A stretch of DNA of 64,000 bases, taken from assembly GCA_963678215.1 (NCBI GenBank), contig OY782758.1, positions 10,086 through 74,085 of the forward strand, given 5' to 3'. This DNA is from Sedimenticolaceae bacterium (lineage in GTDB: Bacteria; Pseudomonadota; Gammaproteobacteria; Chromatiales; Chromatiaceae). This document shows, one piece after another, positions 20,391 through 39,553 of the stretch. The first letter of the stretch is position 1. Each line of letters starts with the position of its first letter. Below the pieces are notes generated by a model. The model searched no databases, was not told the origin of the DNA, and saw only the letters and a list, made by a program, of their open reading frames with translations. The position numbers were made by a program, and so were the translations under genes.

Positions 20391-20399
20391 AGCGTGGCC

Positions 20400-26470: not shown

Positions 26471-26605
26471 CAAAAGGAGAACAATTAGAAAGGACTCGCG
26501 CGCGGTTAATTGGATGCCAACTTGCAGGAAAAAAGAGGTTTTCTTATGAGAAACAAACGGTTAAATGAAAAATTTGGAAAAATTCCCGCAGAATTAGCAG
26601 GAAAC

Positions 26606-26655
26606 CTTGTAATCTTGTTTTGTGGGACGAAGTCCCTCAAAACAGGCTGTTAGCA
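26606..26655 (+). other. attC-like site preceding the first intact cassette
   Basis: CTTGTAATCTTGTTTTGTGGGAC GAA GTCCCTCAAAACAGGCT GTTAGCA. The arms TGTTTTGTGGGAC / GTCCCTCAAAACA pair with one mismatch. The R' core GTTAGCA is at 26649-26655. The R'' is degenerate (TGTAAT). Confidence 0.45.
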
Positions 26656-26684
26656 TTTTCCAATAGTCAGTCGATATAAATAAG

Positions 26685-27365
26685 ATGAAAATCGAATACG
26701 ACATTGCTATTTCATTTGCAGGTGAACAAAGGCCTATAGCAAAAAGAATTAATGATGTATTGAAGGAAAATGGGATTTCTACATTTTATGATGAAGATAA
26801 AATAGTCGAATTATGGGGAAAAAATCTAGCGGAGCACTTGCCCACAATTTATTCCGAAACAGCTCGTTTTGTTTTATTGATATTATCTGAGGAGTATTTA
26901 AATAAAGTATGGACCAAGGTAGAAAGGCGTGCTGCCATTTCTAGAATGATAAGAAGCAGCAATGAATATGTTCTTATCTATAAGGTAGGTGATGTGTGTA
27001 TGGAAAATGCTCCTGGCCTTAGTCGTGATACCGCGTATATTTCAGACTCACTTAAAAATCCAGAAGAAGTTGCATTATTAATTATGAAAAAGCTTGGACT
27101 TAGCTACTCATTGGAGGAACTCAAAAGCGTAATCCCAGATATAGCTAACAAGAGATTGCTTGTAGAGTCAAATGAGAAACAATTTCAAGACGGGTTTGTT
27201 CCATACATTACACTAAGAAACGAAGTATATCAACACTGCCGAGGGGTGGATTTGAAGATAATTGAAAAAATACTATATGATTTTCTGAATAGCCAAGTTA
27301 ACAGAGGCTTGTACGAATACTATGGTGGCGCTGTTTCTGGTTATCGCATCCCGAATAAAAGCTAA
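26685..27365 (+). CDS. TIR-domain protein (cassette 1)
   Basis: 226 aa with the bacterial TIR pattern YDIAISFAGEQRPIAKRINDVLKENGISTFYDED...FVLLILSEEYLNKVWTKVERRAA. The Glu in W-x3-E is the candidate catalytic residue. The C-terminal ~90 aa are unassigned. Confidence 0.7.
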   Translation: MKIEYDIAISFAGEQRPIAKRINDVLKENGISTFYDEDKIVELWGKNLAEHLPTIYSETARFVLLILSEEYLNKVWTKVERRAAISRMIRSSNEYVLIYKVGDVCMENAPGLSRDTAYISDSLKNPEEVALLIMKKLGLSYSLEELKSVIPDIANKRLLVESNEKQFQDGFVPYITLRNEVYQHCRGVDLKIIEKILYDFLNSQVNRGLYEYYGGAVSGYRIPNKS

Positions 27366-27417
27366 CAATTAAAATACACCCGACCTCCTTCGTCGGCGGG
27401 TGATTTAAGCGTTAGAG
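27361..27417 (+). other. attC site 1
   Basis: GCTAAC (27361) overlaps the stop; arms CACCCGAC / GTCGGCGGGTG; GTTAGAG at 27411-27417. Confidence 0.65.
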
Positions 27418-27427
27418 GTAAAAGAAG

Positions 27428-27877
27428 TTGAGGTATGAATGGTCAAAACTGAATAAGCAGCAAAAAGGAACTTATGGTGAATATTTGGCTAAAATGGAAT
27501 TTACTATGTATGGTTTGTCAGTTTTCACGGCAGAAGTAGATGATAGGGGAATTGACTTCGTGATACGTAATAACAATGGGAATCACTTTGATGTTCAAGT
27601 TAAAACTATTACAGGCAAAAATTACACATACATATCGGAGTCAAAGTTCAATAAGAACCTTTTAGTTTGTTTGTTAATTTTAAAAGAACACATGGAACCA
27701 TCTATGTTCTTAATTAAAGGCTCAGACTGGCATAGTGATGATTCAGGTCTGTTAAATTACAAACATTACCCAAGTTCAAAGGAAGCAGAATACGGCATCA
27801 ACATTACAAAAAGCAGGCTTAATCACTTACAAAAGTATGAATTTAAGAATGTTGTGTCATCAATTTCAGGCCTCTAA
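27428..27877 (+). CDS. Small PD-(D/E)xK-type nuclease-like protein (cassette 2)
   Basis: 149 aa with TTG start. The pattern GTYGEYLAKMEF...EVDDRGIDFVI...FDVQVKT fits E...D...(D/E)xK, a Hjc/DUF4365-like arrangement. Confidence 0.5.
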   Translation: MRYEWSKLNKQQKGTYGEYLAKMEFTMYGLSVFTAEVDDRGIDFVIRNNNGNHFDVQVKTITGKNYTYISESKFNKNLLVCLLILKEHMEPSMFLIKGSDWHSDDSGLLNYKHYPSSKEAEYGINITKSRLNHLQKYEFKNVVSSISGL

Positions 27878-27949
27878 CAATCACATTAAATACGCTCCCT
27901 CCGGTCGCCGGATGCTCGCAAGCTCGCACCGTTTATGTGGGCGTTAGCC
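27872..27949 (+). other. attC site 2
   Basis: TCTAAC at 27873-27878 overlaps the stop; inner CCGGTCGCCGG region; GTTAGCC at 27943-27949. Confidence 0.6.
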
Positions 27950-27959
27950 TCAGGAAAGA

Positions 27960-28769
27960 ATGGACAGAATACCACCTTTTGATGCACAACACTTAAAAGC
28001 TGTCTGCCGAGTCCTAGCGGATACAGAACGAGGATTAAGTGGAAGCGAGATAGAATATCTATTGCAAGATTGTAATATGCAAGATGTTGCGCCGACTATG
28101 ACGAAATGGAAAAGGCTATTCAATGCTATGGTAGAAGCTCAAAATACGCATCAGGTTGGAAATCACCTAATCATGTTTGTAAATCGAGCCATGAATCCCG
28201 TTTCATACTCTAGCAGTAAAGCAGCCTTTGATTGGCGAAGAAGTGAATTGAATGTTGTATTAGCATTTTCCGGTTACTCTGTGCGTGAAGACGGAAAGGT
28301 TGCTCGTTCAGCAAAGGAATCAACTATTTCTGGTGCACGGGCTAAAGCTAACGCACTCAAGCATGCACTAGAAGAACGAAACGCTCATCAGCAAGTTTTC
28401 ACATATTGTAGGGCTGAACTTGTAGATCAAAATTACTTTCATGCTGTACTTGAGGCCATTAAAGGCATAGCAGAGCGTATTCGTTCAATCTCTGGACTTT
28501 CTACCGATGGTGCAGAATTGGTAAACACCGCTTTCTCGGTAAAAGCTCCGCTGATTTCAATAAATCCTCTATCCACAGAAACAGAAATAAGTGAGCAAAA
28601 AGGATTTAGTAATATTCTTGTCGGCCTTTTTGGCGCAGTACGAAACCCAACAGCACATGCACCAAAGACCATGTGGGAGATCACTGAGCAAGATGCATTG
28701 GATGTTCTATCAATGGTTTCATATATTCACCGAAAACTTGATAAAGCAAAGGCTAACAAGGCAAATTAA
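27960..28769 (+). CDS. TIGR02391-like protein with C-terminal HEPN-type Rx4H motif (cassette 3)
   Basis: 269 aa. C-terminal FHAVLEAIKGIAERIR...GFSNILVGLFGAVRNPTAHAPK...DALDVLSMVSYIHRKLD matches my recollection of the TIGR02391 family. RNPTAH is the R-x4-H motif. Confidence 0.6.
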   Translation: MDRIPPFDAQHLKAVCRVLADTERGLSGSEIEYLLQDCNMQDVAPTMTKWKRLFNAMVEAQNTHQVGNHLIMFVNRAMNPVSYSSSKAAFDWRRSELNVVLAFSGYSVREDGKVARSAKESTISGARAKANALKHALEERNAHQQVFTYCRAELVDQNYFHAVLEAIKGIAERIRSISGLSTDGAELVNTAFSVKAPLISINPLSTETEISEQKGFSNILVGLFGAVRNPTAHAPKTMWEITEQDALDVLSMVSYIHRKLDKAKANKAN

Positions 28770-28826
28770 CACGGACCTCAAAAGCTGCTTCGCAGCTGTT
28801 GAGGCCGGTTATTTGCGGCGTTATGT
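28751..28826 (+). other. attC site 3
   Basis: GCTAACAAGGCAAATTAACACGGACCTCAAAAGCTGC TTC GCAGCTGTTGAGGCCGG...GCGGC GTTATGT (28820-28826). The left end overlaps the last codons of the ORF. Confidence 0.65.
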
Positions 28827-28860
28827 TTAAAAAATGAAGCCATATACTAAGGAGCAAATT

Positions 28861-29328
28861 ATGAAAAAAACATCAAGTTTAGTTTTAATATTCGTTTTTA
28901 TGGTAGGTTGCTCATCTACTTCATCTATAAACACAAATACGCCAACCGCTAGTACAACCAAAGAGCAGCTTAAACCCACTCCGTCAAAGAAAGTAATTCA
29001 AAATAAAAAAGTTGTGGGACAAAAGGAAAATATTAAACCTTTATACCCAAGCAGCAACTCCACAAAAAGTTTAACTAGTTCTTCTGCAAGCTCTAAATAT
29101 ACAGCCAAAAGAATTTATACTTGCTCCGAGTTAAATAAATCAAATGCCTATTCTTTATTGAAATCAGGTCATTCTTGCCTAGATAGAGATGGTGACGGAC
29201 ATCCTTGCGAATGGGGCAAGAAAAAAATAAAAACATATGCTCCATCGTATAAGAGCAATTGTCACTACGTTGGAGGGTATTATCGGAAAGGCGGAACTTA
29301 TGTTCGTGGTCACATGAGATGCAGATAA
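28861..29328 (+). CDS. Lipoprotein with Excalibur-like calcium-binding motif (cassette 4)
   Basis: ATG at 28861 after AAGGAG. Lipobox LIFVFMVGCSS, a Ser/Thr/Lys-rich linker, and C-terminal CSELNKSNAYSLLKSGHSCLDRDGDGHPCEW (DxDxDGxxCE). Confidence 0.6.
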   Translation: MKKTSSLVLIFVFMVGCSSTSSINTNTPTASTTKEQLKPTPSKKVIQNKKVVGQKENIKPLYPSSNSTKSLTSSSASSKYTAKRIYTCSELNKSNAYSLLKSGHSCLDRDGDGHPCEWGKKKIKTYAPSYKSNCHYVGGYYRKGGTYVRGHMRCR

Positions 29329-29330
29329 AA

Positions 29331-29463
29331 ACATAACAAGTACATCAACTGCGGACTTGCCTACTCAGTGGTTTAATTTCAATTTTGTGGTTTCAGCCAG
29401 TTTTACTGTAAATTTAAGTTCAGTGACTTCGTTTCCGGCAAGCCCGTTATGTAGGCGTTAGCA
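29331..29463 (+). other. attC site 4 (long, ~133 bp)
   Basis: CATAAC at 29332-29337; arms CTGCGGACTTGCC / GGCAAGCCCG; GTTAGCA at 29457-29463. Confidence 0.55.
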
Positions 29464-29514
29464 ATCTAGGTAGTTTATTCGTAGAAATCCAAAATATTTA
29501 TCAAAGGAAGTGTT

Positions 29515-30435
29515 ATGACAGGGTTTAATAATCAAACCTACAGTACCTTAGTAGAAGATTTACTGAATGACACATTTTACATTGGCGAGCGTTCTCCCAG
29601 AGGGACAATTGCGACTATAAGGCAGTACGCAGAGGTCATTGTAAGAAAGATACTAAATTTTTCTAATGAAGAGTACGTTACCCTTGGTAATAAGAAAATA
29701 ATAGAGGCATTAAATTGTGCCAGCAATAACAGCAGTTTACTATTAGATGCCCTAAAGAAAATTACCGATATTGGCAACAAATGTACGCATACGCAGAGAA
29801 TCGAGCAGGTAACAGATCAAGAGGTAGAAAGTACTCTAGAGAGCTTGTTTGATTTATATGCTTATCTCTTTGTTAACTACTTTGGAAAGTATAGATTTGG
29901 AGAAAATGAAGAAATTCAATCATCATTTTCAATTTTGCCACCGATTATAAGATATATAGCTCTTTCTTCCCTTTATGACCTAGATACTGAAAACGTTGCG
30001 ATTATTGATAAACTATCTCTCGCCATTTTAAAGGCATTTGATGAGCAGAAGGCAATAGGTTGGTTGAACGAAAGAAAGGATGAGTTGAAGAGTATGTCAT
30101 CAGTTACTCCAGAAGCAGAGTCCGATCTAAAGGAAAGACTTGGGGCGGCTACAACAAGTATTATCGTCAACCAAGCTCCGAATATGTATGACTTATGCAT
30201 AGATAGAGTTAAGACTGTGAATGTCAAAATACAAGAAAAAGGGCGTCTATACGATGATTTTGAAAGTGCTATAGAGTTATATAAAAAGGAAGGTGTTGTT
30301 TCAGGTGAGAGCGATGCTGTATCAGAGTTTAACGACTTGATGGATTTTGTCTATCTAGGAAGGAAGGCTAGAGAAAATGAAAAGCTTAAAAATAAAGATG
30401 CATATCTTATAATGGATAACTTGTTTTTCCAGTAA
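29515..30435 (+). CDS. DUF4145-like N-terminal domain protein (cassette 5)
   Basis: 306 aa. The N-terminal IATIRQYAEVIVRKILN...LGNKKIIEAL...LLLDALKKITDIGNKCTH resembles DUF4145, a helical HEPN-related module seen fused to restriction/Abi proteins. The rest is unassigned. Confidence 0.45.
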   Translation: MTGFNNQTYSTLVEDLLNDTFYIGERSPRGTIATIRQYAEVIVRKILNFSNEEYVTLGNKKIIEALNCASNNSSLLLDALKKITDIGNKCTHTQRIEQVTDQEVESTLESLFDLYAYLFVNYFGKYRFGENEEIQSSFSILPPIIRYIALSSLYDLDTENVAIIDKLSLAILKAFDEQKAIGWLNERKDELKSMSSVTPEAESDLKERLGAATTSIIVNQAPNMYDLCIDRVKTVNVKIQEKGRLYDDFESAIELYKKEGVVSGESDAVSEFNDLMDFVYLGRKARENEKLKNKDAYLIMDNLFFQ

Positions 30436-30437
30436 AT

Positions 30438-30485
30438 TGCTAACAAAGCGTTGCACCGGACGAGCCGGTGAACGCGGCGTTATGT
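30438..30485 (+). other. attC site 5 (short)
   Basis: GCTAAC (30439-30444) AAAGCGTT GCACCGG ACGAG CCGGTGAACGCGGC GTTATGT (30479-30485). Confidence 0.6.
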
Positions 30486-30520
30486 TTTTAATTGGAACTT
30501 GAATATGTGGAGGATTAAGT

Positions 30521-30883
30521 ATGCATTGGGAATATAGTCAATCTACGGGAAATATGAAATTTAAAGGAATGAAAGTTGCAAAAGGCTACTCTGGCTATGG
30601 CAATGGAAAAGATAAACCCATGATGGAGCATGTCATAAATATTGGCCCAATACCAAAGGGGGAATATGAAATTCAAGCTCCTAGAACTAGTGCAAAAACC
30701 GGCCCGTATGTTTTACCTTTAATACCAGTTAGGCACAATGCACGTGGAAGAACTAATTTTCAAATTCATGGAGATTCTATAGATAAGCCAGGAACGGCAT
30801 CAAATGGTTGCATAATACTAAATCGTTCTATTAGGGAAAAAATATGGCGAAGTGGCATCAGAAAGCTAATTGTAATCAATTAA
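30521..30883 (+). CDS. DUF2778 / Tlde1-like L,D-transpeptidase-fold toxin (candidate T6SS effector; cassette 6, gene 1)
   Basis: 120 aa: GYSGYGNGKDKP...NIGPIPKGEYEI...FQIHGDSIDKPGTASNGCIIL. The H...S-x-G-C catalytic-type motif and the GPIPxGxY segment are characteristic of DUF2778. Confidence 0.6.
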   Translation: MHWEYSQSTGNMKFKGMKVAKGYSGYGNGKDKPMMEHVINIGPIPKGEYEIQAPRTSAKTGPYVLPLIPVRHNARGRTNFQIHGDSIDKPGTASNGCIILNRSIREKIWRSGIRKLIVIN

Positions 30884-30898
30884 GATCTGGTATGTAAA

Positions 30899-31390
30899 AT
30901 GAAAATATCTATCTATACCTTTGTTGTATTCTTTATAGTCGGTTGTACTTTTGGAAGTGAAGGTTCTGAGAAAATAATTAAACGTCTAGAATCAGAAGGA
31001 AAGCCATATTTTGTTCACCTTGTTACTACACAAAAGTATGATCAATTACTAGATAAAATAGAAAATGGAGATGATTATTTAATTCGGGCTTCATCCGTAT
31101 TAACTCAATGGGTAGATGCTTCTACCTCATTATCTTTAAGGTTCTCATTATCGAGAGCAATGACGAAAAATCCTGGTGCGGTTATGAGTCTTGTTCCCAA
31201 TTTTTTTTCAATTCCTGAATTATGTACAATCCCTTACATTGAACCGCCCATTGATCTTGCAATAAAACACATTAATGACTCCATTTCTGCTTTGTCGAGT
31301 TATAGCAACTCTAACGGATCTTACATTAAGTGTATAAATATATATAAAGAAATTAGTAAAAACATAACAAAAAGCTCAAGCGGACGCTGA
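30899..31390 (+). CDS. Lipoprotein, candidate cognate immunity protein (cassette 6, gene 2)
   Basis: 163 aa with lipobox FFIVGCTF. It lies 15 nt downstream of the toxin gene with no attC between them. Confidence 0.45.
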   Translation: MKISIYTFVVFFIVGCTFGSEGSEKIIKRLESEGKPYFVHLVTTQKYDQLLDKIENGDDYLIRASSVLTQWVDASTSLSLRFSLSRAMTKNPGAVMSLVPNFFSIPELCTIPYIEPPIDLAIKHINDSISALSSYSNSNGSYIKCINIYKEISKNITKSSSGR

Positions 31391-31419
31391 AAACCGCTCC
31401 GCTTAGCTTGACGTTAGAT
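31372..31419 (+). other. attC site 6
   Basis: CATAAC (31373-31378) lies inside the ORF end; arms AAGCGGAC / CTCCGCTT; GTTAGAT at 31413-31419. Confidence 0.55.
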
Positions 31420-31428
31420 TCGGAAATT

Positions 31429-32091
31429 ATGATGTACAACCCTATAAGCAAACAACCAAGCCCATTTGTTTACATTATTGACTCACCTTCGCCACAAGAT
31501 TTGTTTGAAGGGTATACTATCGGAATGGCTCTACGAGATGCACTGCGGTCTATTCGCATCCCGCATTTCTATACGCTTGCAGTGAATAGAGAAGCATTGA
31601 ATACAGCGATGAGCGGAAAATTACAAGACTGCATTAATCAAATGCAGCCATATGCTTTAGCAACGGATGCGGTACCGCTTATTCATCTATGTATGCATGG
31701 TGCAAATACGGAAATCTCTTTAACCGACGGTTCGTTTATTACTTGGCAAGAACTAAGGCAGTTGTTAATTTCTCATAATCAAATTAAAGGTTACGACCCA
31801 TTCGTATGCATGGCTTCATGCAATGGAATAGAGGCATCATCCATGGCACATGCATATGACAGTGTGTTTAGCTATCTAATTGGAAACACAGGGCCTGTTT
31901 ATCAATCAGATTTAACTATCGCTTACCTTGCTTTTTACAATCAAATATTCGTAAAGAATGCCACTGTTGATCTAGCTGTATCAAAGATGAAAGTGGCGAC
32001 TGGCGATGAAAATTTTTACTACGCTAGTGGCCAAGTAATCAAACAACAGCGGTTCAATGAACTTTCAAATGGCTGGCAAAATAGAATCTAA
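31429..32091 (+). CDS. Minimal CHAT/caspase-like protein (His-Cys dyad; cassette 7)
   Basis: ATG at 31429. The track ORF start at 31408 lies inside attC 6. PLIHLCMHGANTEISLTDGSFITWQELRQLL...DPFVCMASCNGIEAS matches the caspase-hemoglobinase fold pattern (H-G, then hydrophobic strand, then S/A-C-x-G). Confidence 0.5.
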   Translation: MMYNPISKQPSPFVYIIDSPSPQDLFEGYTIGMALRDALRSIRIPHFYTLAVNREALNTAMSGKLQDCINQMQPYALATDAVPLIHLCMHGANTEISLTDGSFITWQELRQLLISHNQIKGYDPFVCMASCNGIEASSMAHAYDSVFSYLIGNTGPVYQSDLTIAYLAFYNQIFVKNATVDLAVSKMKVATGDENFYYASGQVIKQQRFNELSNGWQNRI

Positions 32092-32178
32092 CAAGCGCAT
32101 AAACTCGGACGTCAAAAAGCTGCGCCGCTCGTTCCTCGCTCTGCAGCTTTTTGCCTCCGGTTATGCTTGGCGTTAGCC
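32086..32178 (+). other. attC site 7
   Basis: TCTAAC at 32087-32092 overlaps the stop; arms CGGACGTCAAAAAGCTGCG / CTGCAGCTTTTTGCCTCCGG; GTTAGCC at 32172-32178. Confidence 0.65.
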
Positions 32179-32193
32179 GTCGAAGGAGAGTAG

Positions 32194-32472
32194 ATGCCTT
32201 ATCTAAGGTTTTATCGAAGAATTCCTATAATACCTGGATTGTTGTATCTGAACTTATCAAAAGGCGGTGTTTCCATCTCTATTGGTAAGCGCGGGTGGAC
32301 AGTTACCTTCGGAAAACATGGTGTTCGCTTTACAGCGGGTTTGCCCGGAACAGATTTGTTTGTTACGGAACATGTAAATTACGAAAAAATCAACGTTAAG
32401 GAGCGTGAAAAAGAGGCTCCAAGCATTGAACAATTTATAGGAGAACGTGATGGCACGAAAGAAGAAAGATGA
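32194..32472 (+). CDS. DUF4236 domain protein (cassette 8, gene 1)
   Basis: 92 aa. YLNLSKGGVSISIGKRGWTVTFGKHGVRFTAGLPGT matches the DUF4236 repeat pattern. Confidence 0.6.
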   Translation: MPYLRFYRRIPIIPGLLYLNLSKGGVSISIGKRGWTVTFGKHGVRFTAGLPGTDLFVTEHVNYEKINVKEREKEAPSIEQFIGERDGTKEER

Positions 32473-33196
32473 TGCAGGTGGGGTAATTATTCTAATAATT
32501 ATAGTGGTTTTGGTTGTAATAGCTCTCGCTACGCCAGTAGTAATCGTTATCGGGTATTTGTACAACAAAATCAAAGAAAGCGAAGTAAGAAAACATTTAA
32601 CAGGTACTATGACTGGTTTTTGGATTGAAGATAATGAAAAACGTGATTTCAAAGAAAAAGTCTATCAATTATCACAGGTAGAGAAAATAATACAACAGGC
32701 CAATAATAAAGGTGAGCAGGCAGGGATAAGCAGAAACCAAGATGGTACATTTTCCGCCAGAAGTAAACTTGGAAAAGAATTAAAAGGAACAATAAGTAAA
32801 CATGAACCAATAAAAGCCAATCTTATTGGATACTTGCAAGAATTGCAGAGTCTTCCAATTTCACGTTGGGAAGACTTCAATAATTATGTAAGAAATGGCA
32901 AGTCCTTTCTTTTGTCGCTTTGCAGTTGGGTTGCCGCACTGGTGTATTATTCAATAACACTTGGGAAGCAGACCATATCTGAAGCAATTATGCCATATTA
33001 CGCATTAGCAACTAATTTTTTCCGAGATGAAGGCAACAAACTGCCGATGGTAGATGGTGACTTAAAAATGGTAGCAATAGCCACAGTTGCAGCAATTGCC
33101 TCATATTTTTTGTTTCGTGTCATTTTTGCCAATGCTGCTACAAAATATTCTCCAAAGCCTGGGGTTGTAACGCTTGAAAATATTGATACATATTGA
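32450..33196 (+). CDS. Membrane protein (cassette 8, gene 2)
   Basis: ATG at 32450, 6 nt after AGGAG, overlapping gene 1 by 23 nt. N-terminal TM helix VIILIIIVVLVVIALATPVVIVIGYL and two C-terminal helices (FLLSLCSWVAALVYYSI, MVAIATVAAIASYFLFRVIF). Confidence 0.5.
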   Translation: MARKKKDDAGGVIILIIIVVLVVIALATPVVIVIGYLYNKIKESEVRKHLTGTMTGFWIEDNEKRDFKEKVYQLSQVEKIIQQANNKGEQAGISRNQDGTFSARSKLGKELKGTISKHEPIKANLIGYLQELQSLPISRWEDFNNYVRNGKSFLLSLCSWVAALVYYSITLGKQTISEAIMPYYALATNFFRDEGNKLPMVDGDLKMVAIATVAAIASYFLFRVIFANAATKYSPKPGVVTLENIDTY

Positions 33197-33202
33197 CGAA
33201 AC

Positions 33203-33274
33203 GGCTAACAAGGCATTCCACCGGACGGCAATTCCGCTACGCTCCATTGCCGCCGGTGAGCTTGGTCGTTATAG
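33203..33274 (+). other. attC site 8
   Basis: GCTAAC (33204-33209) AAGGCATTCCACCGGACGGCAAT...CATTGCCGCCGGTGAGCTTGGTC GTTATAG (33268-33274). Confidence 0.65.
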
Positions 33275-33357
33275 GGCTTATTGATGGTTTAAAGGCCTAC
33301 TAAACGTTGAACCTTTAAAAGAATGGCTTTAAATATTCACAGTAAAAAGGGTGAAAA

Positions 33358-34752
33358 ATGGAAGCAGAGATAGCAAGTACTTCAAGTATTTCACCAAAAT
33401 CATTTCTAAAAGCTAGAAGACCAGAGCGTTTTTCCGATTCAATAACAAAGGATGTAGGTAAACTAGATCGTTCTGTTTTGGAATTTCAGTTGTCTACGCT
33501 TAATAGAAGAAATATGGAGTTGGCATTCGAAGATTTCGCTAAAAGACTCTGTGAAAAAGTCATTTGTCCAAATCTGCTAGAGCAAACAGGTCCGGTTGCG
33601 GGTGGTGATGGAAAGGTAGATACACAAACCTTTCCCGTATCAGAGCAATCTAAAGTTCTTTGGTATATTGGAGTTGATGAAAATTCCAACAACGAACGAT
33701 GGGCTTTTGCAGTAAGCACACAAGAAGATTGGAAAGCTAAGTGCAGGAAAGATGTTCGAAAAATAAAAGCCACTGACCGAGATTACAAAAAAGCATTTTG
33801 TGTAACAAATATGTATGCAAAAGCTAATCAGCGAAGTGAGTTGGAAGACTCGTTAAGGGAAGAAACTGGAATTGATGTAAGAATTTTAGATATCTCTTGG
33901 ATACTAGATCAAATCTTTTCCAATGGCTACGAACAATTGGCGATTGATTGTTTGTCGATTGACATAGACTGGCGCCGAGAAATAGAAATCGGAGTTAATG
34001 ACTACGCTAGAAATGTAAGGCTAAATGAGCTCGAAGAATTAATAAAAAATGAAATAGACACTAGTAAAGTGCTCCCTCACCAATTGGATTGGTTATTAGA
34101 GGTCGCGGTATTGTCAAAGGAACTCGAAAAGCCCTCAATTGAAACACAGGGTCTTTTTCTAAGAGCTATTAAAGCGGCTGAAAAATTTGGCACTAATTCC
34201 CATCGATTTAATGCTCATTATCAGTATGCTTGGGCTGCCTATTGGTGGTTTGAAGACATTGCTATATTTGGCGAACAGCTATCGTTATGTTTGCAGATAG
34301 CGAAAGGAATTGAGCAATCGGCTCAATGGGGAGATACAGTATCGCTTCTTGGTCTCTATTCGAGCTACTATCGAGGTAGTGAAGGTGAAAGTGATTTGGA
34401 TATCGAATCGCTTCTGTTAGAGGCAAACGGCGAACTCAATAAGCTTGCAAAAAAGGATGAACGACCCAGTAATTCTCTGATGTCTCGGATCTATATTGAA
34501 TTGTTAAATTTGCATTCCATCAAGAATATAGACCAAGCTTCAGCCATATTTTCATCAATGCACGAAATTATGAAAGAAGGTGAGAAGTTAGTAGGCTTCT
34601 CATTTAATGAAGTATCCGATTTGGTTACCGAGTTGGATAGTTTGTTTGGTGAATTAGAAAGTTATGAAAATTTACTTGACTATATTACAGAGTGCACTTC
34701 ACGTCGTGAGGGCGAGGTTAGGGCCAATGTCATTAACTTAAGGGATAAGTGA
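33358..34752 (+). CDS. Hypothetical 460-aa-class protein, 3' end disrupted by IS insertion (cassette 9)
   Basis: The native reading frame runs to about 34724. The last 8-9 codons and the stop are supplied by the IS inverted repeat. The N-terminal region FEDFAKRLCEKVICPNLLEQTGPVAGGDGKVD...WAFAVSTQEDWK weakly resembles Mrr-type restriction-endonuclease cores. The C-terminal half is helical and repeat-like. Confidence 0.45.
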   Translation: MEAEIASTSSISPKSFLKARRPERFSDSITKDVGKLDRSVLEFQLSTLNRRNMELAFEDFAKRLCEKVICPNLLEQTGPVAGGDGKVDTQTFPVSEQSKVLWYIGVDENSNNERWAFAVSTQEDWKAKCRKDVRKIKATDRDYKKAFCVTNMYAKANQRSELEDSLREETGIDVRILDISWILDQIFSNGYEQLAIDCLSIDIDWRREIEIGVNDYARNVRLNELEELIKNEIDTSKVLPHQLDWLLEVAVLSKELEKPSIETQGLFLRAIKAAEKFGTNSHRFNAHYQYAWAAYWWFEDIAIFGEQLSLCLQIAKGIEQSAQWGDTVSLLGLYSSYYRGSEGESDLDIESLLLEANGELNKLAKKDERPSNSLMSRIYIELLNLHSIKNIDQASAIFSSMHEIMKEGEKLVGFSFNEVSDLVTELDSLFGELESYENLLDYITECTSRREGEVRANVINLRDK

Positions 34753-36164
34753 TTGCGTACGCTTATAGTTTGGTCGGAAAGCGGGGACCGCAACCTTTTT
34801 CAAATGCCTCGGGAAAGACCGACCGGGCCTGACGGGTTCGACCGCATTGACCATGCGTTGCAACAAGCACTGACATAAGTCGAGCACAGCATCAGAGCAT
34901 AACACGCGCATCAGGTTATTCTTCATCGCCGATAAGGCATTGGCCCAGTTGATTTGGTATCGATAATGCCTTTTTCGGTAACGCTCATCGGCCAACCACT
35001 GGGCAATGAACACAAAAATTGCGGTCAGGTTCTGCGCCAGGATTTTGGCCTGAAAATCCTGTAAGACGACCTGGGGCGAACGACCTGAGACATTCTCCAC
35101 CTCCAGGCGTAATTTGCTCCGCTTATACTGCTCCTCAATGCCCCAACGTAAGGCATACAACTTGGCAAACAACCGAGTGGGGTAGGTTTTCTCGTCCAGT
35201 AATGAGGTAGCCAAAACTTCAATCTCTCCAGACTTCAGTTCCACCCGGATTAAGCGTACCAGGATGGGCTTTGTTGGCAAATGAAAGTCTTTACACTGGC
35301 GGGCATTCTGGGCATTGGGTGTCAGCGACACGAGAGTGCTTTTTTGTCCTGATGCCACAAAGGCTTTCACTTCAGCATGGAAGTCCAGGCGTACCCGCGC
35401 ACAAAAGCCCCGTTGTTGCACGCAATGGAAAACAAACAGCCAGAACGCCGCATAGCCCCGGTCATACAAGAAAAGATCATCTGGACGGGACTCCAGGACA
35501 TACTCACTGGCAAAAGTGCGTTCACCCTCCGCATAGGGAGCCAAGTCGGCTTGAATCACCCGATCATTGAGCACATCATACAGCGTAGACCAGCGGGCCA
35601 AAGGGACGCCATCGCCTTTGCGGTGACCAAAATGTGCGGCAATCTGAGGGGTAGAGGGCAACCGGGCAGTAGAACCATCCACGGCCAAGACACGCAAACC
35701 TTGCCAACGTCGTTCACCGAGTTGTTGGGAAGCCAGATCAACCAGACGGTCATTGAGCCAAACCAAGGCGTGTGGGTTGAGTTTTTGACGTGCTCGACAC
35801 AAAGCGGCGGGGGTGACTGGCTTCACGTTGGGTTGTGCTTCCTGTAACACCTCAAAAGCCTGATCCAGCTCATTGCGCAGGGTGCCTTTACGGAAATTGA
35901 GGCGTAGAGGGACTAAGCGGGATAGCGGTAAATCGCGTTGGCGGGAAAAATCACCGACCTGAGTGCGGGCTTGTTGGAGAAAGTCGTCTGAGCGAATAAC
36001 ATCCTTTATAGGGTCATAGATGTTTCTAAATAATGCGCTGAATCTGGGCAAGATCGGTTGTCGGGACTGGGGCTGAAAGGGACATGAAATGCTCCTGAGT
36101 AAACGATGAACTGGTAAAATACCTTACACTATTCAGGCACTTAGTGCTTAAGTTAATGACATTG
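34725..36164 (-). mobile_element. IS4-family insertion sequence (1440 bp) with about 27-bp imperfect terminal inverted repeats
   Basis: IRL CAATGTCATTAACTTAAGGGATAAGTG (34725-) and the complement of IRR CAATGTCATTAACTTAAGCACTAAGTG (-36164). The first 18 bp are identical. GC content is visibly higher than in the flanking cassettes. No direct target duplication was recognised. Confidence 0.8.
34738..36051 (-). CDS. IS4-family DDE transposase
   Basis: 437 aa with DDE blocks VLAVDGS, LFLYDRGY and YALRWGIEEQYKRSK (Y-x2-R-x3-E-x6-K). Confidence 0.85.
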   Translation of the reverse strand: MPRFSALFRNIYDPIKDVIRSDDFLQQARTQVGDFSRQRDLPLSRLVPLRLNFRKGTLRNELDQAFEVLQEAQPNVKPVTPAALCRARQKLNPHALVWLNDRLVDLASQQLGERRWQGLRVLAVDGSTARLPSTPQIAAHFGHRKGDGVPLARWSTLYDVLNDRVIQADLAPYAEGERTFASEYVLESRPDDLFLYDRGYAAFWLFVFHCVQQRGFCARVRLDFHAEVKAFVASGQKSTLVSLTPNAQNARQCKDFHLPTKPILVRLIRVELKSGEIEVLATSLLDEKTYPTRLFAKLYALRWGIEEQYKRSKLRLEVENVSGRSPQVVLQDFQAKILAQNLTAIFVFIAQWLADERYRKRHYRYQINWANALSAMKNNLMRVLCSDAVLDLCQCLLQRMVNAVEPVRPGRSFPRHLKKVAVPAFRPNYKRTQSLIP

Positions 36165-36217
36165 CCCCTAGACCCAGCGTACCATCTTGAAATTCCTCAA
36201 CCACAACGGAGGTAGTT

Positions 36218-36718
36218 TTGCTTGGATTAAAAGTTCGTACATTTTGGCAGATTGTTATATTCAGTTTTGTGGCGTCTAGTTCAGCATACGCCACTGAAAA
36301 CTGTATTTTTAGCAAGGAAAATATTTCCCAAAAGCAATATTCGGATAACCCTGCTATTGAGGTTTTCCAATGGTTCCCCAAAAGTAATGAAGTTAAAGGG
36401 GTTCTATCTAACGGCCATTTATTTTCTGTGAAACACTGGGCATGCCATCACTACGGAAAGCAGGCCATTATGCTTATAGGGCCGCAAATAGCATCCATTC
36501 CGCGTGAACTTAACAAGCATATTCTGCAACTGGGCAAAGTAGCCCTTAGCAAGACCGAATTTATGTTGCTAACGAATAACATAGCAAATAAGCCATTTAA
36601 GCTAGCAGATTCCCCCATAACATTGCGTATTAAATCTAAAACCTTTGATGACTTCTATGTACAGACAAATATTATAGGGGAGGTAATATTGATTGAGATT
36701 AGACTATATAAATCATAG
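36218..36718 (+). CDS. Secreted hypothetical protein
   Basis: 166 aa. TTG start 7 nt after GGAGG and signal peptide FWQIVIFSFVASSSAYA. No motif recognised. Confidence 0.45.
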   Translation: MLGLKVRTFWQIVIFSFVASSSAYATENCIFSKENISQKQYSDNPAIEVFQWFPKSNEVKGVLSNGHLFSVKHWACHHYGKQAIMLIGPQIASIPRELNKHILQLGKVALSKTEFMLLTNNIANKPFKLADSPITLRIKSKTFDDFYVQTNIIGEVILIEIRLYKS

Positions 36719-36833
36719 CGCTTAACAAAACATTCCAGCGGAACCCCAACACTGCGCGGCTTTTTGCGCATGGCTTCGCCATTGTCGCGCAAACGCTGCT
36801 CCGCGTTGGGTTCCGCTGAGTTTGGCGTTATCG
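36719..36833 (+). other. attC site 9
   Basis: GCTTAAC (36720-36726) AAAACATTCCAGCGGAACCCCAACACTGCGCGG...CCGCGTTGGGTTCCGCTGAGTTTGGC GTTATCG (36827-36833). Long complementary arms. Confidence 0.65.
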
Positions 36834-37061
36834 CGCTGGGCAAAGCCCAGCGTATTCTTGCAGGGTGAAAGCAAAGTGGCATAAATCCAAATTCACCCCT
36901 TTAGGTGGTACGAAAATACTTGACCACTACAGTGATGGTTCGCGCGAAAGTGAGTACAACCGGGGAACCGGATGCGGGAAAACTGCACGTCAGGGTCTGT
37001 GCGGGGGGCGTCCGGTAACGGGCGTTCCTACCGCGAGAGGTGAAAAAGAAAGAGTAGATAT

Positions 37062-37319
37062 ATGCCAATAATAAGCAGATTTCTTGGAATAATCATAGCC
37101 ATGTATTGGGATGATCATTCTCCTCCACACTTTCATGCAAAGTATGCAGAGTATGAAATAACCATAAATATTCACACCGGTGTAGTAGAGGGAAAATTCC
37201 CAAAACGAGCACTCAAGCATGTTCTCGAATGGTATGAATTACACAAAGATGAATTAATTGAAAACTGGGAGCTATGTCAGAATAATGAAGCACCAAGACC
37301 CATAGAACCACTGGAGTGA
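37062..37319 (+). CDS. DUF4160 domain protein (cassette 10, gene 1)
   Basis: 85 aa. ISRFLGIIIAMYWDDHSPPHFHAKY is the DUF4160 signature. Confidence 0.75.
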   Translation: MPIISRFLGIIIAMYWDDHSPPHFHAKYAEYEITINIHTGVVEGKFPKRALKHVLEWYELHKDELIENWELCQNNEAPRPIEPLE

Positions 37320-37324
37320 TAATT

Positions 37325-37612
37325 ATGTTTCTTCATGTTACAAACGCAAAATATCTAGAAGATTATAAGGTAGAAGTATCATTTAACAATGGCCGGAAAG
37401 GTGTGGCTGATTTAATCGATGCTTTAAAAGGTCCAGTATTTAGCCTATTGAAAAATAAATCAGAATTTTCTAGATTCATAGTTGATAAAGAGCTTGAAAC
37501 AATTGTTTGGCCCAATGGGGCTGATCTAGCTCCTGAATATATATTTTTTCAAGCATTTAAAAACGAACCTGAACTTCAGGCACAATTCAAACAATGGGGT
37601 TATATCACCTAA
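37325..37612 (+). CDS. DUF2442 domain protein (cassette 10, gene 2)
   Basis: ATG at 37325. VTNAKYLEDYKVEVSFNNGRKGVADL...ETIVWPNGADLAPEYI fits DUF2442, the usual partner of DUF4160. Confidence 0.7.
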   Translation: MFLHVTNAKYLEDYKVEVSFNNGRKGVADLIDALKGPVFSLLKNKSEFSRFIVDKELETIVWPNGADLAPEYIFFQAFKNEPELQAQFKQWGYIT

Positions 37613-37615
37613 AAA

Positions 37616-37646
37616 TTGCTTAAATCTGACGCATTTGGCGTTATGT
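37616..37646 (+). other. Truncated attC-like remnant
   Basis: GCTTAAATCTGACGCATTTGGC GTTATGT (37640-37646) is directly followed by GTAACAATCAGCCGCGCAC, an R''-like left arm. It is too short for a complete site and looks like fused halves. Confidence 0.3.
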
Positions 37647-37671
37647 GTAACAATCAGCCGCGCACATAAAT

Positions 37672-37725
37672 TTCCAATCAATTTGCAGTAATTCTATACT
37701 CTCAGCAAACCCATCGTACTGAGAG
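37672..37725 (+). promoter_or_regulatory. Candidate sigma70 promoter plus operator-like inverted repeat upstream of the RHH gene
   Basis: TTCCAA (37672-37677), 17-nt spacer, TATACT (37695-37700). The 7-bp inverted repeat CTCTCAG (37699-37705) / CTGAGAG (37719-37725) lies between the -10 box and the RBS GAGGTG. Confidence 0.35.
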
Positions 37726-37732
37726 GTGTAAA

Positions 37733-37954
37733 ATGCCCAGGCTTACTGTTGATCTATCCTCCGAAATTGACTCCCGCCTTACTTCCATTGCCCAGAGGCA
37801 AGGTATCTCCAAAGCCGAAGCCATGCGACGAGCATTCGCATTACTGTCAGTCGCAGACCAAGAAACCGCCAAAGGGAATTCTTTGGGCATTGTGCGTGAA
37901 GATCCCAATGGACATGAACTTATAGCTCTTGGCCGTGTTGTGGGGCTTCAATGA
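37733..37954 (+). CDS. Ribbon-helix-helix (CopG/MetJ-type) protein, antitoxin-like (cassette 11, gene 1)
   Basis: 73 aa. The N-terminal PRLTVDLSSEIDSRLTSIAQRQGISKAEAMRRAF is a typical RHH beta-alpha-alpha segment. Confidence 0.65.
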   Translation: MPRLTVDLSSEIDSRLTSIAQRQGISKAEAMRRAFALLSVADQETAKGNSLGIVREDPNGHELIALGRVVGLQ

Positions 37955-38208
37955 ACAGTGAGGAAAACATTGATCTGAAATCGGTCTTCTCTGAAGAGAG
38001 CCGTGTCAGCATTGATGAAAGTGATCGCTTAAAATTCGCGAAGCAAGTGCTATTTTAGCTGGGGTTTATTTGTATTGCGGTATTTATCGGCTATGCGGTG
38101 TTTCCAGAAAACGCAGCATTAGCAGCTATATTTGAGTTGGTTAAAATCGGGGCATTACTGTTGGTCACCTTGGTGATTTTCTTTTACTTTCCCAATTCAA
38201 GCAAGTAA
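37951..38208 (+). pseudogene. Small membrane-protein gene interrupted by an in-frame amber codon (cassette 11, gene 2)
   Basis: ATG at 37951 overlaps the RHH stop (ATGA). It reads 35 codons (MNSEENIDLKSVFSEESRVSIDESDRLKFAKQVLF), then TAG at 38056-38058, then 49 more in-frame codons encoding two hydrophobic segments (LGFICIAVFIGYAVF...IGALLLVTLVIFFYF), with the stop at 38206-38208. Confidence 0.5.
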
Positions 38209-38284
38209 CACATAATCAACCATTCAACCAGGAGTGCCTTCGTCACTTACGCTCTTCAGCCGCCCTGTTAATGGGGCGTTAGCG
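38203..38284 (+). other. attC site 11
   Basis: AGTAAC (38204-38209) overlaps the stop; GTTAGCG at 38278-38284; partially complementary arms (CCATTCAACCAGG / CCCTGTTAATGG). Confidence 0.5.
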
Positions 38285-38318
38285 CCAAAAATATCATTTC
38301 CAACGTTGTGTTGGAACT

Positions 38319-38603
38319 TTGCTAAGTGATTCAGAAAAACAAAGTTTAATCAATTATTTAGCGAAACACCCGCAAACAGGTGCCATCATGCAGGGTACTG
38401 GCGGCATCCGAAAACTCCGTTGGGCTTCTGGCAGCAAAGGAAAAAGTGGTGGTGTTCGAGTGATTTACTACCACTACCATGAAATGGTTCGACTATTTTT
38501 GCTTTCCATTTTTGGTAAAAGTGAAAAGGCTAATTTATCTAAAGCAGAAAGGAACGAACTTGCCAAATTCACTCAATTACTTGTGAAACACTATGGTGAA
38601 TAA
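38319..38603 (+). CDS. higB: HigB-2-like (RelE/ParE superfamily) toxin, apparently N-terminally shortened (cassette 12, gene 1)
   Basis: LSDSEKQSLINYLAKHPQTGAIMQGTGGIRKLRWASGSKGKSGGVRVIYYHY...LFLLSIFGKSEKANLSKAERNEL parallels Vibrio cholerae HigB-2 as I recall it (LSDEEYRLFQ...GDVIQGTGGLRKIRVASKGKGKRGGSRIIYYF). The frame opens right after the attC core and has only a TTG start. Confidence 0.6.
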   Translation: MLSDSEKQSLINYLAKHPQTGAIMQGTGGIRKLRWASGSKGKSGGVRVIYYHYHEMVRLFLLSIFGKSEKANLSKAERNELAKFTQLLVKHYGE

Positions 38604-38605
38604 AG

Positions 38606-38893
38606 ATGTCGGAATTTTTCAACAGTATTAAACAAGGCTTGGAAGAAGCTATTGATTACTCAAAAGGCAGATGTCCTAAAGCTGTTGTACATAAATTTTC
38701 CCCCATTGATGTAAAGAATATTCGTGCAAAAATGGGGATGAATCAAAATGAATTTGCATCCGCTTTTGGCATTAGTGTTAGTACATTGAGGCATTGGGAG
38801 CGTGGGGATCGTTCTCCGCAGGGGCCAGCTTTAGTGTTGCTCAATGTCGTTGCAAAAGAACCCCATGCTGTACTTAAAGTATTGGCAAGTTAA
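38606..38893 (+). CDS. higA: HigA-2-like XRE HTH antitoxin (cassette 12, gene 2)
   Basis: 95 aa. IRAKMGMNQNEFASAFGISVSTLRHWERGDRSPQGPALVLLNVVAKEPHAV. Confidence 0.7.
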   Translation: MSEFFNSIKQGLEEAIDYSKGRCPKAVVHKFSPIDVKNIRAKMGMNQNEFASAFGISVSTLRHWERGDRSPQGPALVLLNVVAKEPHAVLKVLAS

Positions 38894-38896
38894 TTG

Positions 38897-38967
38897 CGCT
38901 AACAAGTTGCTCCACCGGAAAAAATACTCGCTTCGCTCGCATTTTTCCGCTGGGTCAGGTGTTAAAT
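38897..38967 (+). other. attC site 12
   Basis: GCTAAC (38898-38903) AAGTTGCTCCACCGGAAAAAAT...CATTTTTCCGCTGGGTCAGGT GTTAAAT (38961-38967). Confidence 0.65.
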
Positions 38968-38987
38968 TTACTCGGAGAATTTATTCT

Positions 38988-39191
38988 ATGCCCTATGTGA
39001 ATATAAAAATTACCAATGAAGGTGTTTCAAAGGAACAAAAAACTCAATTGGTTGCGGGTGTGACCGAGCTACTTCAGCGGGTTCTAAATAAGAATTCTGC
39101 AACAACTGTTGTGGTGATTGACGAAGTGGAAACTGATAATTGGGGTATCGGTGGTGAGCTGGTTACCGAAAGAAGAAAGCGGGGGGCTTAA
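38988..39191 (+). CDS. 4-oxalocrotonate tautomerase family protein (cassette 13)
   Basis: ATG at 38988 gives MPYVNIKITNEGVSKEQKTQLVAGVTELLQRVLNK, with the Pro-1 signature after Met removal. 67 aa. The longer track ORF start at 38844 lies inside higA. Confidence 0.7.
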   Translation: MPYVNIKITNEGVSKEQKTQLVAGVTELLQRVLNKNSATTVVVIDEVETDNWGIGGELVTERRKRGA

Positions 39192-39250
39192 AAGGTGAGG
39201 GCAGCGGTTTCTGTTGCGGAGTGATGTTTCCCAAGGCTGTGTCGGGTCGT

Positions 39251-39432
39251 TCAATTATTGTACCGCCATAGCCATTCGGTCGCTGTCTGCTGGGCATGAG
39301 CGATGGATTCAGAGATGTGTTCGCCCAGCCACTGCGGATAGTTTTTCGTCCAGTCGCTTACCGGCTTCCCGTGTGTTGATGTATTTGATGATGTTGTTGT
39401 GCTCGTTGACGAATTTGGCAGCGGATTGAATC
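39251..39432 (-). pseudogene. IS3-family (IS2-group-like) transposase OrfB C-terminal relic
   Basis: Minus-strand fragments ...GKPVSDWTKNYPQWLGEHISESIAHAQQTATEWLWRYNN* resemble the conserved OrfB end (PGKP...ATEWLWTYNNERPH). The relic is frameshifted, internally deleted and truncated. Confidence 0.5.
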
Positions 39433-39553
39433 ATAACGATCAGTTATTCCCGGAGAATTCCGCTGCCCTTGATCGTTCAATGCACTTGGCTTTTATGGCG
39501 AAAGAATTTAAGCGCGATTGCTCTGGGAGTTGGCGCTATCGCGCTGCATTTGC

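Follow-up and report, generated by a model that had tools for sequence, protein, structure and literature searches.

A probable integrase-less integron cassette array at a strain-variable site between tssA and ald in a Sedimenticolaceae bacterium

Introduction

How does a long run of small, co-oriented genes come to be assembled at a locus that shows no recombinase, and how does it come to lie there? This question is raised by a 64,000-nt stretch of DNA from a Sedimenticolaceae bacterium (GenBank assembly GCA_963678215.1, contig OY782758.1, positions 10,086 to 74,085 of the forward strand), which we refer to as the window in the following. Between 26.6 and 39.2 kb, the window holds an AT-rich run of about 14 co-oriented cassettes with 13 integron attC sites between them. 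An initial annotation, made from the sequence alone, had read this segment as an integron cassette array without an integrase. Every testable element of that reading held, and we conclude that the segment is very probably a fragment of an integron cassette array without an integrase of its own, i.e. a group of clustered attC sites that has no integron-integrase (CALIN).

Integrons are common in Gammaproteobacteria. The cataloguing of CALINs began in 2016, and it is already recognized that anti-phage systems are stored in integron cassettes. A CALIN is defined by at least two clustered attC sites with neither intI nor an intI pseudogene nearby (Cury et al., 2016, PMC4889954); we applied this definition with attC gaps of less than 4 kb and with distances of 4 kb for intI and 10 kb for its pseudogenes.

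Extent and composition of the array

In a 1-kb profile, the G + C (GC) content is 0.36–0.44 over 26–39 kb, compared with about 0.51 in both flanks, and it is 0.35–0.45 in the individual cassettes. The sole GC-rich kilobase of the array, at 35–36 kb (0.53), is an inserted insertion sequence (IS). The profile agrees with the AT-richness previously claimed for 26.6–39.2 kb, and the map of open reading frames (ORFs) agrees with the description of the cassette genes as lying entirely on the plus strand with short gaps, the only large ORF on the minus strand being an IS4-family transposase (34738–36051). The largest gap between neighboring attC sites is 3.4 kb (33274 to 36720) and is due to the IS inserted there, so that all 13 sites cluster at gaps of less than 4 kb.

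The partition of the array required some correction. A palindrome had been said to follow each ORF or ORF pair, which is true of most of them, but not of the tautomerase gene at the right end: behind this gene, which adjoins an IS3-family relic, no attC site was found by any method. The last site, with the right end at 39253, was rejected as well, as 39195–39330 consists of IS3-family transposase debris; the array therefore ends at about 39194. Conversely, the segment around the Tlde1-domain gene, previously taken as one cassette, comprises two, because an attC site at 31362–31419 had been hidden by the ORF map.

The palindromes are attC sites

Altogether, 13 sites of 30–133 nt were mapped. 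Ten are well formed and cover exactly the range of 48–133 bp given for them in the initial annotation, attC sites in general being roughly 57–141 nt long; the other three (attC0, attC9 and attC10) are degenerate. Read from the gaps between the ORFs, the sites open with ..TAACAA.. and close with ..GGCGTTAG/T... A GTTA R' box is present in all 13 and a TAAC R'' box in 11, and the R'' box overlaps the stop codon in several cassettes, as had been noted. The R' variants GTTAGAG, GTTAGCC, GTTATGT, GTTATAG and GTTAAAT were all recovered, and so was the recurrent CGGAC motif, which we find in six sites. The heptamer CTAACAA has eight copies in the 64 kb, all of them on the plus strand and within 27.1–38.9 kb.

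What did not hold as a general rule is the consensus RYYYAAC...GTTRRRY, since a strict regular expression catches few of the sites and TAAC...GTTA alone is near-invariant. As a detector, this expression was uninformative, with eight matches scattered over the window. A lax complementarity search was likewise discarded, as it returned 128 matches per strand from everywhere, and an ungapped inverted-repeat finder missed the attC sites because of their bulges. Rfam yielded no family in the window at gathering thresholds.

The sites share a fold as well as their boxes. In an alignment of ten window sites with six class 1 reference sites, columns A5, A6, C7, A8, A9, G42, T43 and T44 are invariant. 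When folded with DNA parameters, the bottom strands form a stem of R boxes, a short unpaired spacer, a stem of L boxes with single-base bulges on one arm and a variable loop, which is the R''–L''...L'–R' organization that had been proposed. This hairpin is formed by the ten well-formed sites, in most cases with the bulge at alignment column 16. A grammar scan that ignores loop length and permits bulges on the R''–L'' arm only gave six matches, all of them in the array and on the plus strand, where 0.02 would be expected in shuffled sequences, and zero matches with the opposite bulge polarity. In a 48-column anchored alignment, again of ten window and six reference sites, 87.5% of the cells are paired, compared with 72% in shuffles (0/500 reach 87.5%) and 26–44% with the partners slid; compensatory changes on both sides are seen in seven of the nine L-box pairs.

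We further searched the window with a home-built covariance model, R1, which was constructed from only six class 1 attC sites of plasmid arrays and run with filters off. The aadA1 attC site is present verbatim in thousands of plasmids. The six best matches of R1 coincide with mapped sites at their exact coordinates, all on the plus strand; five have E-values from 2.9e-5 to 0.013, so that significant covariance-model matches were found at the sites, and the best match outside the array has E = 2.4. Over 1.37 Mb including 81 related loci (default filters), only sites of the array scored at E < 1, now including attC8 at 23.5 bits. For calibration, the attC site of the estX cassette, which had been excluded from the model, scored 15.9 bits, less than five sites of the window, and that of OXA-10 was missed. 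A second model, R2, built from 16 sites with trimmed R- and L-box bases, was set aside: it finds short sites only, because a long loop insertion is penalized, and its sensitivity is not above that of R1. An alignment of R1 matches was also kept out of model building, as it contains minus-strand matches of palindromic reference sites.

One site has a direct relative among known attC sites. Over 64 nt, attC11 and the attC site of the estX cassette share 85.9% identity (E = 9e-12), a match found in 561 plasmid records. This likeness gives a hint of the environmental source pool of the estX (sat-like) cassette found in clinical class 1 integrons, and it ties an environmental, sulfur-oxidizer-like gammaproteobacterium to the clinical cassette pool. 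attC11 also resembles sites on plasmids of Saccharobesus, Pseudoalteromonas and Vibrio; the surroundings of the Saccharobesus site were uninformative.

The history of the array can be read from its junctions. IntI cuts the folded bottom strand of attC between the G and the TT of R'. The final six bases of R' are hence part of the following cassette, with whose own R'' box they are expected to pair. In eight of the 12 junctions, R'' is complementary to the preceding R' at 7/7 bases, and in one more at 6/7, whereas R'' matches the R' of its own site perfectly in none of the 12. In a permutation test, 1 of 200,000 permutations was as good. Reference class 1 arrays follow the same rule, and homologous cassettes in other arrays confirm the cassette boundaries at G|TT. 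The cassettes, then, were assembled by recombination of the IntI type.

Taken together, sequence, structure, polarity, covariance model, estX homology and junction signature show that the palindromes are attC sites. That they should instead be ordinary repetitive extragenic palindromic (REP) elements or intrinsic terminators resembling attC has next to no probability: their position 3' of ORFs would fit such elements, but they are confined to the array, with none in the flanks (51 kb) or in the related loci (1.3 Mb); there are no T runs 3' of the sites and only one terminator-like match on the plus strand overlaps a site; they are too heterogeneous for REP families (median pairwise identity 53%, range 0.33–0.74); and they carry the G|TT signature and include a homolog of a known attC site.

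No integrase is detectable in the window

IntI1 from R100 gave no credible match in the window, either with tblastn (best E = 0.19) or with phmmer --max against all 826 six-frame segments (best E = 0.19), and NCBIfam profiles run over the six frames of 25.4–26.7 kb found IS30 only (E = 1.8e-10). No tyrosine recombinase, intact or decayed, is thus detectable in the 64 kb, which extend for about 25 kb on each side of the array. This corroborates the earlier statement that there is no intI ORF and that an IS30 relic occupies its expected position on the left, where the first element of the array is a truncated cassette with an attC remnant adjoining this relic. As for the platform of a complete integron, which consists of intI, attI and the cassette promoter Pc, no intI was found, and attI, for which there is no general sequence model, was not searched for directly.

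The array occupies a strain-variable site

Both ends of the array are marked by IS relics and, beyond them, by gene remnants (Table 1). On the left, the initial annotation had seen an IS30 relic and unassignable fragments; the relic was confirmed, but the fragments are assignable, as a remnant of hsdM, a gene of a Type I restriction-modification (R-M) system. On the right, the run into an IS3-family relic was verified by six-frame reading and by tblastn, which matched it to 590 plasmid records at 60–64% identity (E down to 5e-11), described as IS3 family transposases where annotated.

The origin of the gene remnants became apparent from a 74-kb Joint Genome Institute contig (L001), to which a 99%-identical alanine dehydrogenase led us and which represents a sister strain: both of its flanks are 97–98% identical to those of the window. 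Its interval between ald and the type VI secretion system (T6SS) gene tssA (L001 11249–18956) holds an intact Type I R-M operon, hsdR-hsdS-AAA_13-zeta-hsdM, and neither cassettes nor attC matches. The corresponding variable segment of the window is 25674–39483, with the hsdM fragment (81–82% identical to hsdM of L001 in blastn) and the hsdR fragment just inside its edges and the IS relics further in.

Since an R-M operon occupies this site in the sister strain, the locus is not an ancestral integron platform of the lineage, and since hsdM and hsdR remnants flank the array, the array, or any integron, arrived after the R-M operon. The spot between tssA and ald varies between strains, and the presence of R-M, AAA_13 and zeta genes in the same interval of a 97–98% identical strain marks it as a strain-variable defense hotspot beside a T6SS cluster. 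It is like other defense islands and hotspots in that one strain carries R-M, AAA_13 and zeta genes and the other an array rich in defense and toxin genes; it is unlike them in that the cargo consists here of integron cassettes with attC sites instead of free-standing operons.

LeuB, which is 82–84% identical to its counterparts in metagenome-assembled genomes, places the host among Sedimenticolaceae/Chromatiales-like Gammaproteobacteria; an alphaproteobacterial host was rejected on this ground. Relatives of TssA were sought in genome contigs without a match, and the loci of LeuB relatives show no synteny beyond leuB. Exact-sequence look-ups of TssA, Ald, the TIR-domain protein and a further protein (P0121) yielded no record. 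A stretch of 676 bp (41876–42551) is also missing from the sister strain, whose NAD_binding_2 (3-hydroxyisobutyrate dehydrogenase-like) gene, at 41748–42644 in the window, thus has an internal deletion.

Comparison with known integron arrays

With its clustered and co-oriented attC sites, the absence of intI, adjoining IS elements (seen in 38% of CALINs) and cassettes that are mostly of unknown function, the array resembles the CALINs described by Cury et al. (2016, PMC4889954). It differs from them in its size, as it has 13 attC sites, a number above ten being reached by just 6.6% of CALINs, and in the unusual legibility of its insertion context, with an R-M operon in the sister strain and gene remnants on both sides.

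Sedentary chromosomal integrons, such as the Vibrio superintegron, are similar in being chromosomal, in having more than ten cassettes and in carrying toxin-antitoxin (TA) and defense-type cassettes. A further likeness concerns orientation: GC skew is positive across the window, from which we infer that the attC bottom strands lie on the leading-strand template, as they do in 25 of 30 sedentary chromosomal integrons, where this arrangement is tied to low excision (PMC5371416). In contrast to these integrons, the array has no integrase, its attC sites do not form a homogeneous family like the Vibrio cholerae repeats, and its absence from a 97–98% identical strain means that its presence is not fixed in the lineage.

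With class 1 plasmid arrays, the array shares the architecture of attC column by column (R'', a 5-nt spacer, an L'' bulge 3 bp into the stem, L', a spacer and R'), the junction rule and, in attC11, a close relative of the estX site. Unlike them, it has no intI1, attI1, Pc, 3' conserved segment or resistance genes. The L'–R' spacer differs as well: it is 5 nt long in most window sites and in the estX attC site, and 6 nt in aadA-type, cmlA1 and OXA-10 sites, which may reflect distinct attC lineages or integrase preferences.

Several points weigh against the classification as a CALIN or against parts of its evidence. R1 is narrow (aadA-type), so that attC2 and attC3 score weakly and attC4 and attC6 not at all; these four sites therefore rest on their folds, on the junction rule and, for attC3 and attC6, on the grammar scan. 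Covariation was scored on an alignment that had been fitted manually to the structure and is biased toward it. Three sites are degenerate and four junctions break the rule. The R-M remnants cover no more than 37 and 77 aa, and their DNA identity to the sister-strain genes is only about 80%. Finally, the search for an integrase spans the 64-kb window, and an IntI may be encoded elsewhere in the genome.

Table 1. Features of the array and its edges, in order of position in the window
Feature	Position	Strand	Evidence or remark
hsdM fragment, Type I R-M remnant	25835–26019	-	tblastn with sister-strain HsdM aa 84–161, E = 1e-10
IS30-family transposase relic, frameshifted	26036–26480	+	NCBIfam NF033563 on six frames, E = 1.8e-10 and 1.5e-3
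Leftmost cassette remnant with attC0	26481–26655	+	R' matches next R'' 6/7
attC0	26600–26655	+	degenerate, R'' decayed; R' GTTAGCA; hairpin and R' box
Cassette 1: TIR-domain protein (26685–27365), attC1	26650–27417	+	Pfam TIR_2, E = 1.4e-13
attC1	27360–27417	+	R1 E = 5.2e-5; grammar match
Cassette 2: 149-aa protein (27428–27877), attC2	27412–27949	+	phrog_5018, E = 4e-11
attC2	27872–27949	+	R1 match at exact coordinates, weak (E = 3.1); fold; junction 7/7
Cassette 3: PD-Lambda-3_B/Hypoth_Ymh (HEPN-like) protein (27960–28769), attC3	27944–28826	+	PADLOC PD-Lambda-3_B, E = 1.8e-132, full length; Pfam Hypoth_Ymh
attC3	28751–28826	+	grammar match; junction 7/7
Cassette 4: lipoprotein (28834–29328), attC4	28821–29463	+	lipobox; weak Excalibur match
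attC4	29331–29463	+	133 nt; fold; junction 7/7
Cassette 5: 306-aa protein (29515–30435), attC5	29458–30485	+	
attC5	30438–30485	+	48 nt; R1 E = 5.7e-3; grammar match; junction 7/7
Cassette 5b: Tlde1-domain protein (30521–30883), lipoprotein (30899–31390), attC5b	30480–31419	+	Pfam Tlde1_dom, E = 5e-16; lipobox in second protein
attC5b	31362–31419	+	R1 E = 2.9e-5; grammar score 9; junction 7/7
Cassette 6: predicted stand-alone caspase/CHAT-fold protein (31429–32091), attC6	31414–32178	+	
attC6	32086–32178	+	grammar match
Cassette 7: DUF4236 protein (32194–32472), membrane protein (32447–33196), attC7	32173–33274	+	Pfam DUF4236
attC7	33203–33274	+	R1 E = 3.7e-4; junction 7/7
Cassette 8, truncated: first ~453 codons of a ~1,088-aa gene	33269–34723	+	blastn homology covers 33268–34723 only
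IS4-family insertion sequence	34719–36170	-	33-nt inverted repeats; GC 0.53; NF033592, E = 5.6e-53; DDE_Tnp_1
Cassette 8', 5'-truncated: secreted 166-aa protein (36218–36718), attC8	36171–36833	+	
attC8	36720–36833	+	114 nt; R1 23.5 bits; grammar match; fold -32.8 kcal/mol
Cassette 9: DhiT/DhiA (DUF4160/DUF2442) toxin-antitoxin pair (37062–37612), attC9 remnant	36828–37646	+	NCBIfam toxin_DhiT, E = 1.9e-21; Pfam
attC9	37617–37646	+	degenerate: R' half alone remains
Cassette 10: RHH protein (37733–37954), non-coding remainder, attC10	37641–38284	+	Pfam RHH_1
attC10	38203–38284	+	degenerate, poor fold; R' GTTAGCG matches next cassette's R'' 7/7
Cassette 11: RelE/HigB-like toxin (38319–38603), HTH antitoxin (38606–38893), attC11	38279–38967	+	Pfam RelE, HTH_3
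attC11	38897–38967	+	R1 E = 0.013; homologous to estX-cassette attC
Cassette 12: 4-oxalocrotonate tautomerase family protein (38988–39191)	38962–39194	+	TIGR00013, E = 1.1e-27, full length; attC site lost
IS3-family transposase C-terminal relic	39195–39330	-	six-frame reading
hsdR fragment, Type I R-M remnant	39342–39452	-	tblastn with sister-strain HsdR aa 858–894, E = 2e-8; blastn 79% identity

Erosion of the right third

The right third of the array is eroding, with attC9 and attC10 degenerate, one attC site deleted and an IS lodged in a cassette. The deletion is evident from the relatives of cassette 8. Relatives of the ORF at 33358 were found at 27 metagenome loci, and according to five close ones (92–93% identical) and a sixth at 72%, the gene encodes about 1,088 aa. 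These six cassettes, of about 3.4 kb, come from marine and sediment metagenomes (L088:6001–9267, L087, L089–L091 and L095). Four of them become similar to the window precisely at G|TTATAG, the attC sequence upstream of this point being unrelated. Five have a 3'-end attC site with the R'' box CTATAAC, and L087 has a degenerate box (CTATAGC). By the junction rule, CTATAAC is exactly what would be expected of the copy in the window, which is without it; in one locus, GTTATAA is paired with TTATAAC, a compensatory change. Distant homologs of the protein (58–60% identical) are not found in cassettes, and no Pfam domain was detected in it, even at full length.

In blastn, nothing 3' of the IS4-family element matches the remaining 1.9 kb of this gene, and in none of the 27 loci does a homolog of the 166-aa ORF stand beside it. 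A deletion beside the IS must therefore have taken the 3' part of the gene, its attC site and the start of the next cassette. This loss accounts for the breach of the junction rule at attC8; the breaches at attC9 and attC10 fall at degenerate sites. An alternative partition, with the 464-aa and 166-aa ORFs paired in a single cassette, was rejected: the former ORF is what remains of the 1,088-aa gene, next to which the latter is never found elsewhere.

Origin and present state of the array

The cassettes were added singly by an integron integrase acting at G|TT of folded bottom-strand attC sites, a history that remains legible at most junctions. The array now lies within the remains of a Type I R-M operon in the ald-tssA interval, its ends cut by a dead IS30 element on the left and a dead IS3 element on the right, and an IS4-family element interrupts it, a linked deletion having taken most of one large cassette together with its attC site. 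The present inactivity and the expression of the array, as well as its route of arrival, we infer as follows. Without an adjacent intI, attI and Pc, it would be a passive store that does not shuffle itself, although its nine to ten structurally intact attC sites should be substrates for an IntI supplied in trans, either from the genome or from an incoming mobile integron. The TA cassettes (DhiT/DhiA and RelE-like/HTH), which probably have promoters of their own, are probably expressed and may aid retention of the segment; the other cassettes would be expressed only via internal promoters or read-through. A promoter scan found no enrichment (32 matches, with 33.4 expected).

As to how the array reached this site, one reading, possible if rather unlikely, is that it did not decay in situ: IS-mediated transposition or recombination would have carried it as a single block into the strain-variable defense hotspot, where it displaced the Type I R-M operon. 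Were this true, integrase-less arrays would circulate as exchangeable cargo of defense islands independently of integron integrases, and several unannotated cassettes (the 220-aa, 306-aa and 1,088-aa proteins) would be new single-gene conflict systems.

Among the alternatives, a real prospect, albeit one that falls short of being probable, is that the array is a part split off by IS-mediated rearrangement from an active integron whose IntI is encoded elsewhere in the genome and still shuffles it in trans. About half of all CALINs lie in genomes that encode IntI, and adjacent IS elements are commoner there (PMC4889954); moreover, nine to ten attC sites are intact and eight junctions unmutated, which indicates recent activity or a recent arrival. 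What speaks against continued shuffling is the decay of the right third described above, with its uncorrected IS.

It is doubtful that the array is the stump of a resident integron which decayed in situ after an IS30-associated deletion had removed an intI-attI platform on its left. The IS30 relic does lie exactly where intI and attI would be expected, the truncated leftmost cassette implies that sequence was lost on this side, and loss of the integrase is among the listed origins of CALINs (Cury et al., 2016, PMC4889954). However, no fragment of an intI pseudogene is detectable, the sister strain has the R-M operon at the site and no trace of an integron or attC, the flanking hsdM and hsdR remnants place any integron after the R-M operon, and truncation affects both ends of the array and not that of the integrase alone.

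Assembly on the spot, by a trans-acting IntI that inserted a first cassette at a secondary site and then added others by attC × attC recombination, is very improbable: integrase-mediated insertion of cassettes outside att sites has been reported (bioRxiv 10.1101/2022.09.11.507474), but IS relics truncate the outermost cassette at either end of the array, with no clean secondary-site junction, and fourteen cassettes with heterogeneous attC sites go far beyond what such events are known to leave.

The CALIN described here matters modestly, as a clean natural before-and-after case in which a near-identical strain keeps the displaced R-M operon. Its edges are marked by gene remnants and dead IS elements, and the internal IS and deletion show how an array erodes without an integrase to maintain it. 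In this respect, the locus directly supports the view, already proposed, that CALINs arise through IS-mediated rearrangements.

Cassette cargo

For the most part, the cassettes carry predicted conflict genes. These encode a TIR/ThsB-like protein, a PD-lambda-3_B/HEPN protein, a Tlde1 effector accompanied by a lipoprotein as immunity candidate, a stand-alone caspase-fold protease and two to three TA modules; several other proteins have no assigned function. Such a content is in keeping with the storage of anti-phage systems and TA modules in cassettes of chromosomal integrons (bioRxiv 10.1101/2024.07.02.601686; PMC13108822). Compact candidates for conflict genes are the TIR-only protein, the lone PD-lambda-3_B protein, the minimal caspase-fold protease and the Tlde1 effector with its lipoprotein beside a T6SS.

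The TIR-domain protein of cassette 1 has PADLOC matches to PDC-S66 and ThsB. The protein of cassette 3 belongs to PD-lambda-3, an abortive-infection system (PMC13190303), for which no PD-Lambda-3_A partner was detected and the protein of the neighboring cassette (27428–27877) gave no match; PD-Lambda-3_B may either work by itself here or have a partner that is missing. Family searches returned no match for the 306-aa protein of cassette 5, and sequence searches of the PDB with four cassette proteins returned no match.

Cassette 5b lies about 5 kb from tssA and tssM, the T6SS genes being located at 19089–25421. Tlde1 is a family of T6SS L,D-transpeptidase effectors, and the accompanying lipoprotein could be the immunity protein for the Tlde1-domain protein. 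In a literature search, no clear description of T6SS effector-immunity pairs carried as integron cassettes came to light.

A predicted minimal caspase-fold protein in cassette 6

The 220-aa protein of cassette 6 has no match in Pfam, NCBIfam or PADLOC. Its AlphaFold2 model has a predicted local distance difference test (pLDDT) score of 92.9, and in Foldseek the PDB entry that this model matches best is 8tl0, a SAVED-CHAT filament, with legumain and caspases next in rank. The protein has an invariant histidine (..CMHG..) and cysteine (..ASCNG..). With high confidence, the protein is thus predicted to have a caspase/CHAT-type protease fold.

The family is widespread in integron-rich genera, namely Vibrio, Xanthomonas, Aeromonas, Acinetobacter and Methylomonas. 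In at least two other arrays, its gene is a cassette that follows the junction rule: in Xanthomonas campestris, strong attC matches stand on both sides of it, and in Methylomonas it has attC matches and an IntI1-like fragment (48% identity, 110 aa) at a distance of about 1 kb. Among the loci compared, two carry IntI1-like sequences next to attC matches, namely L103 (6361–7338; 30% identity over 263 aa, attC match of 38.9 bits) and L116 (8616–8936; 48% identity, first 110 aa only), the latter possibly being a truncated intI.

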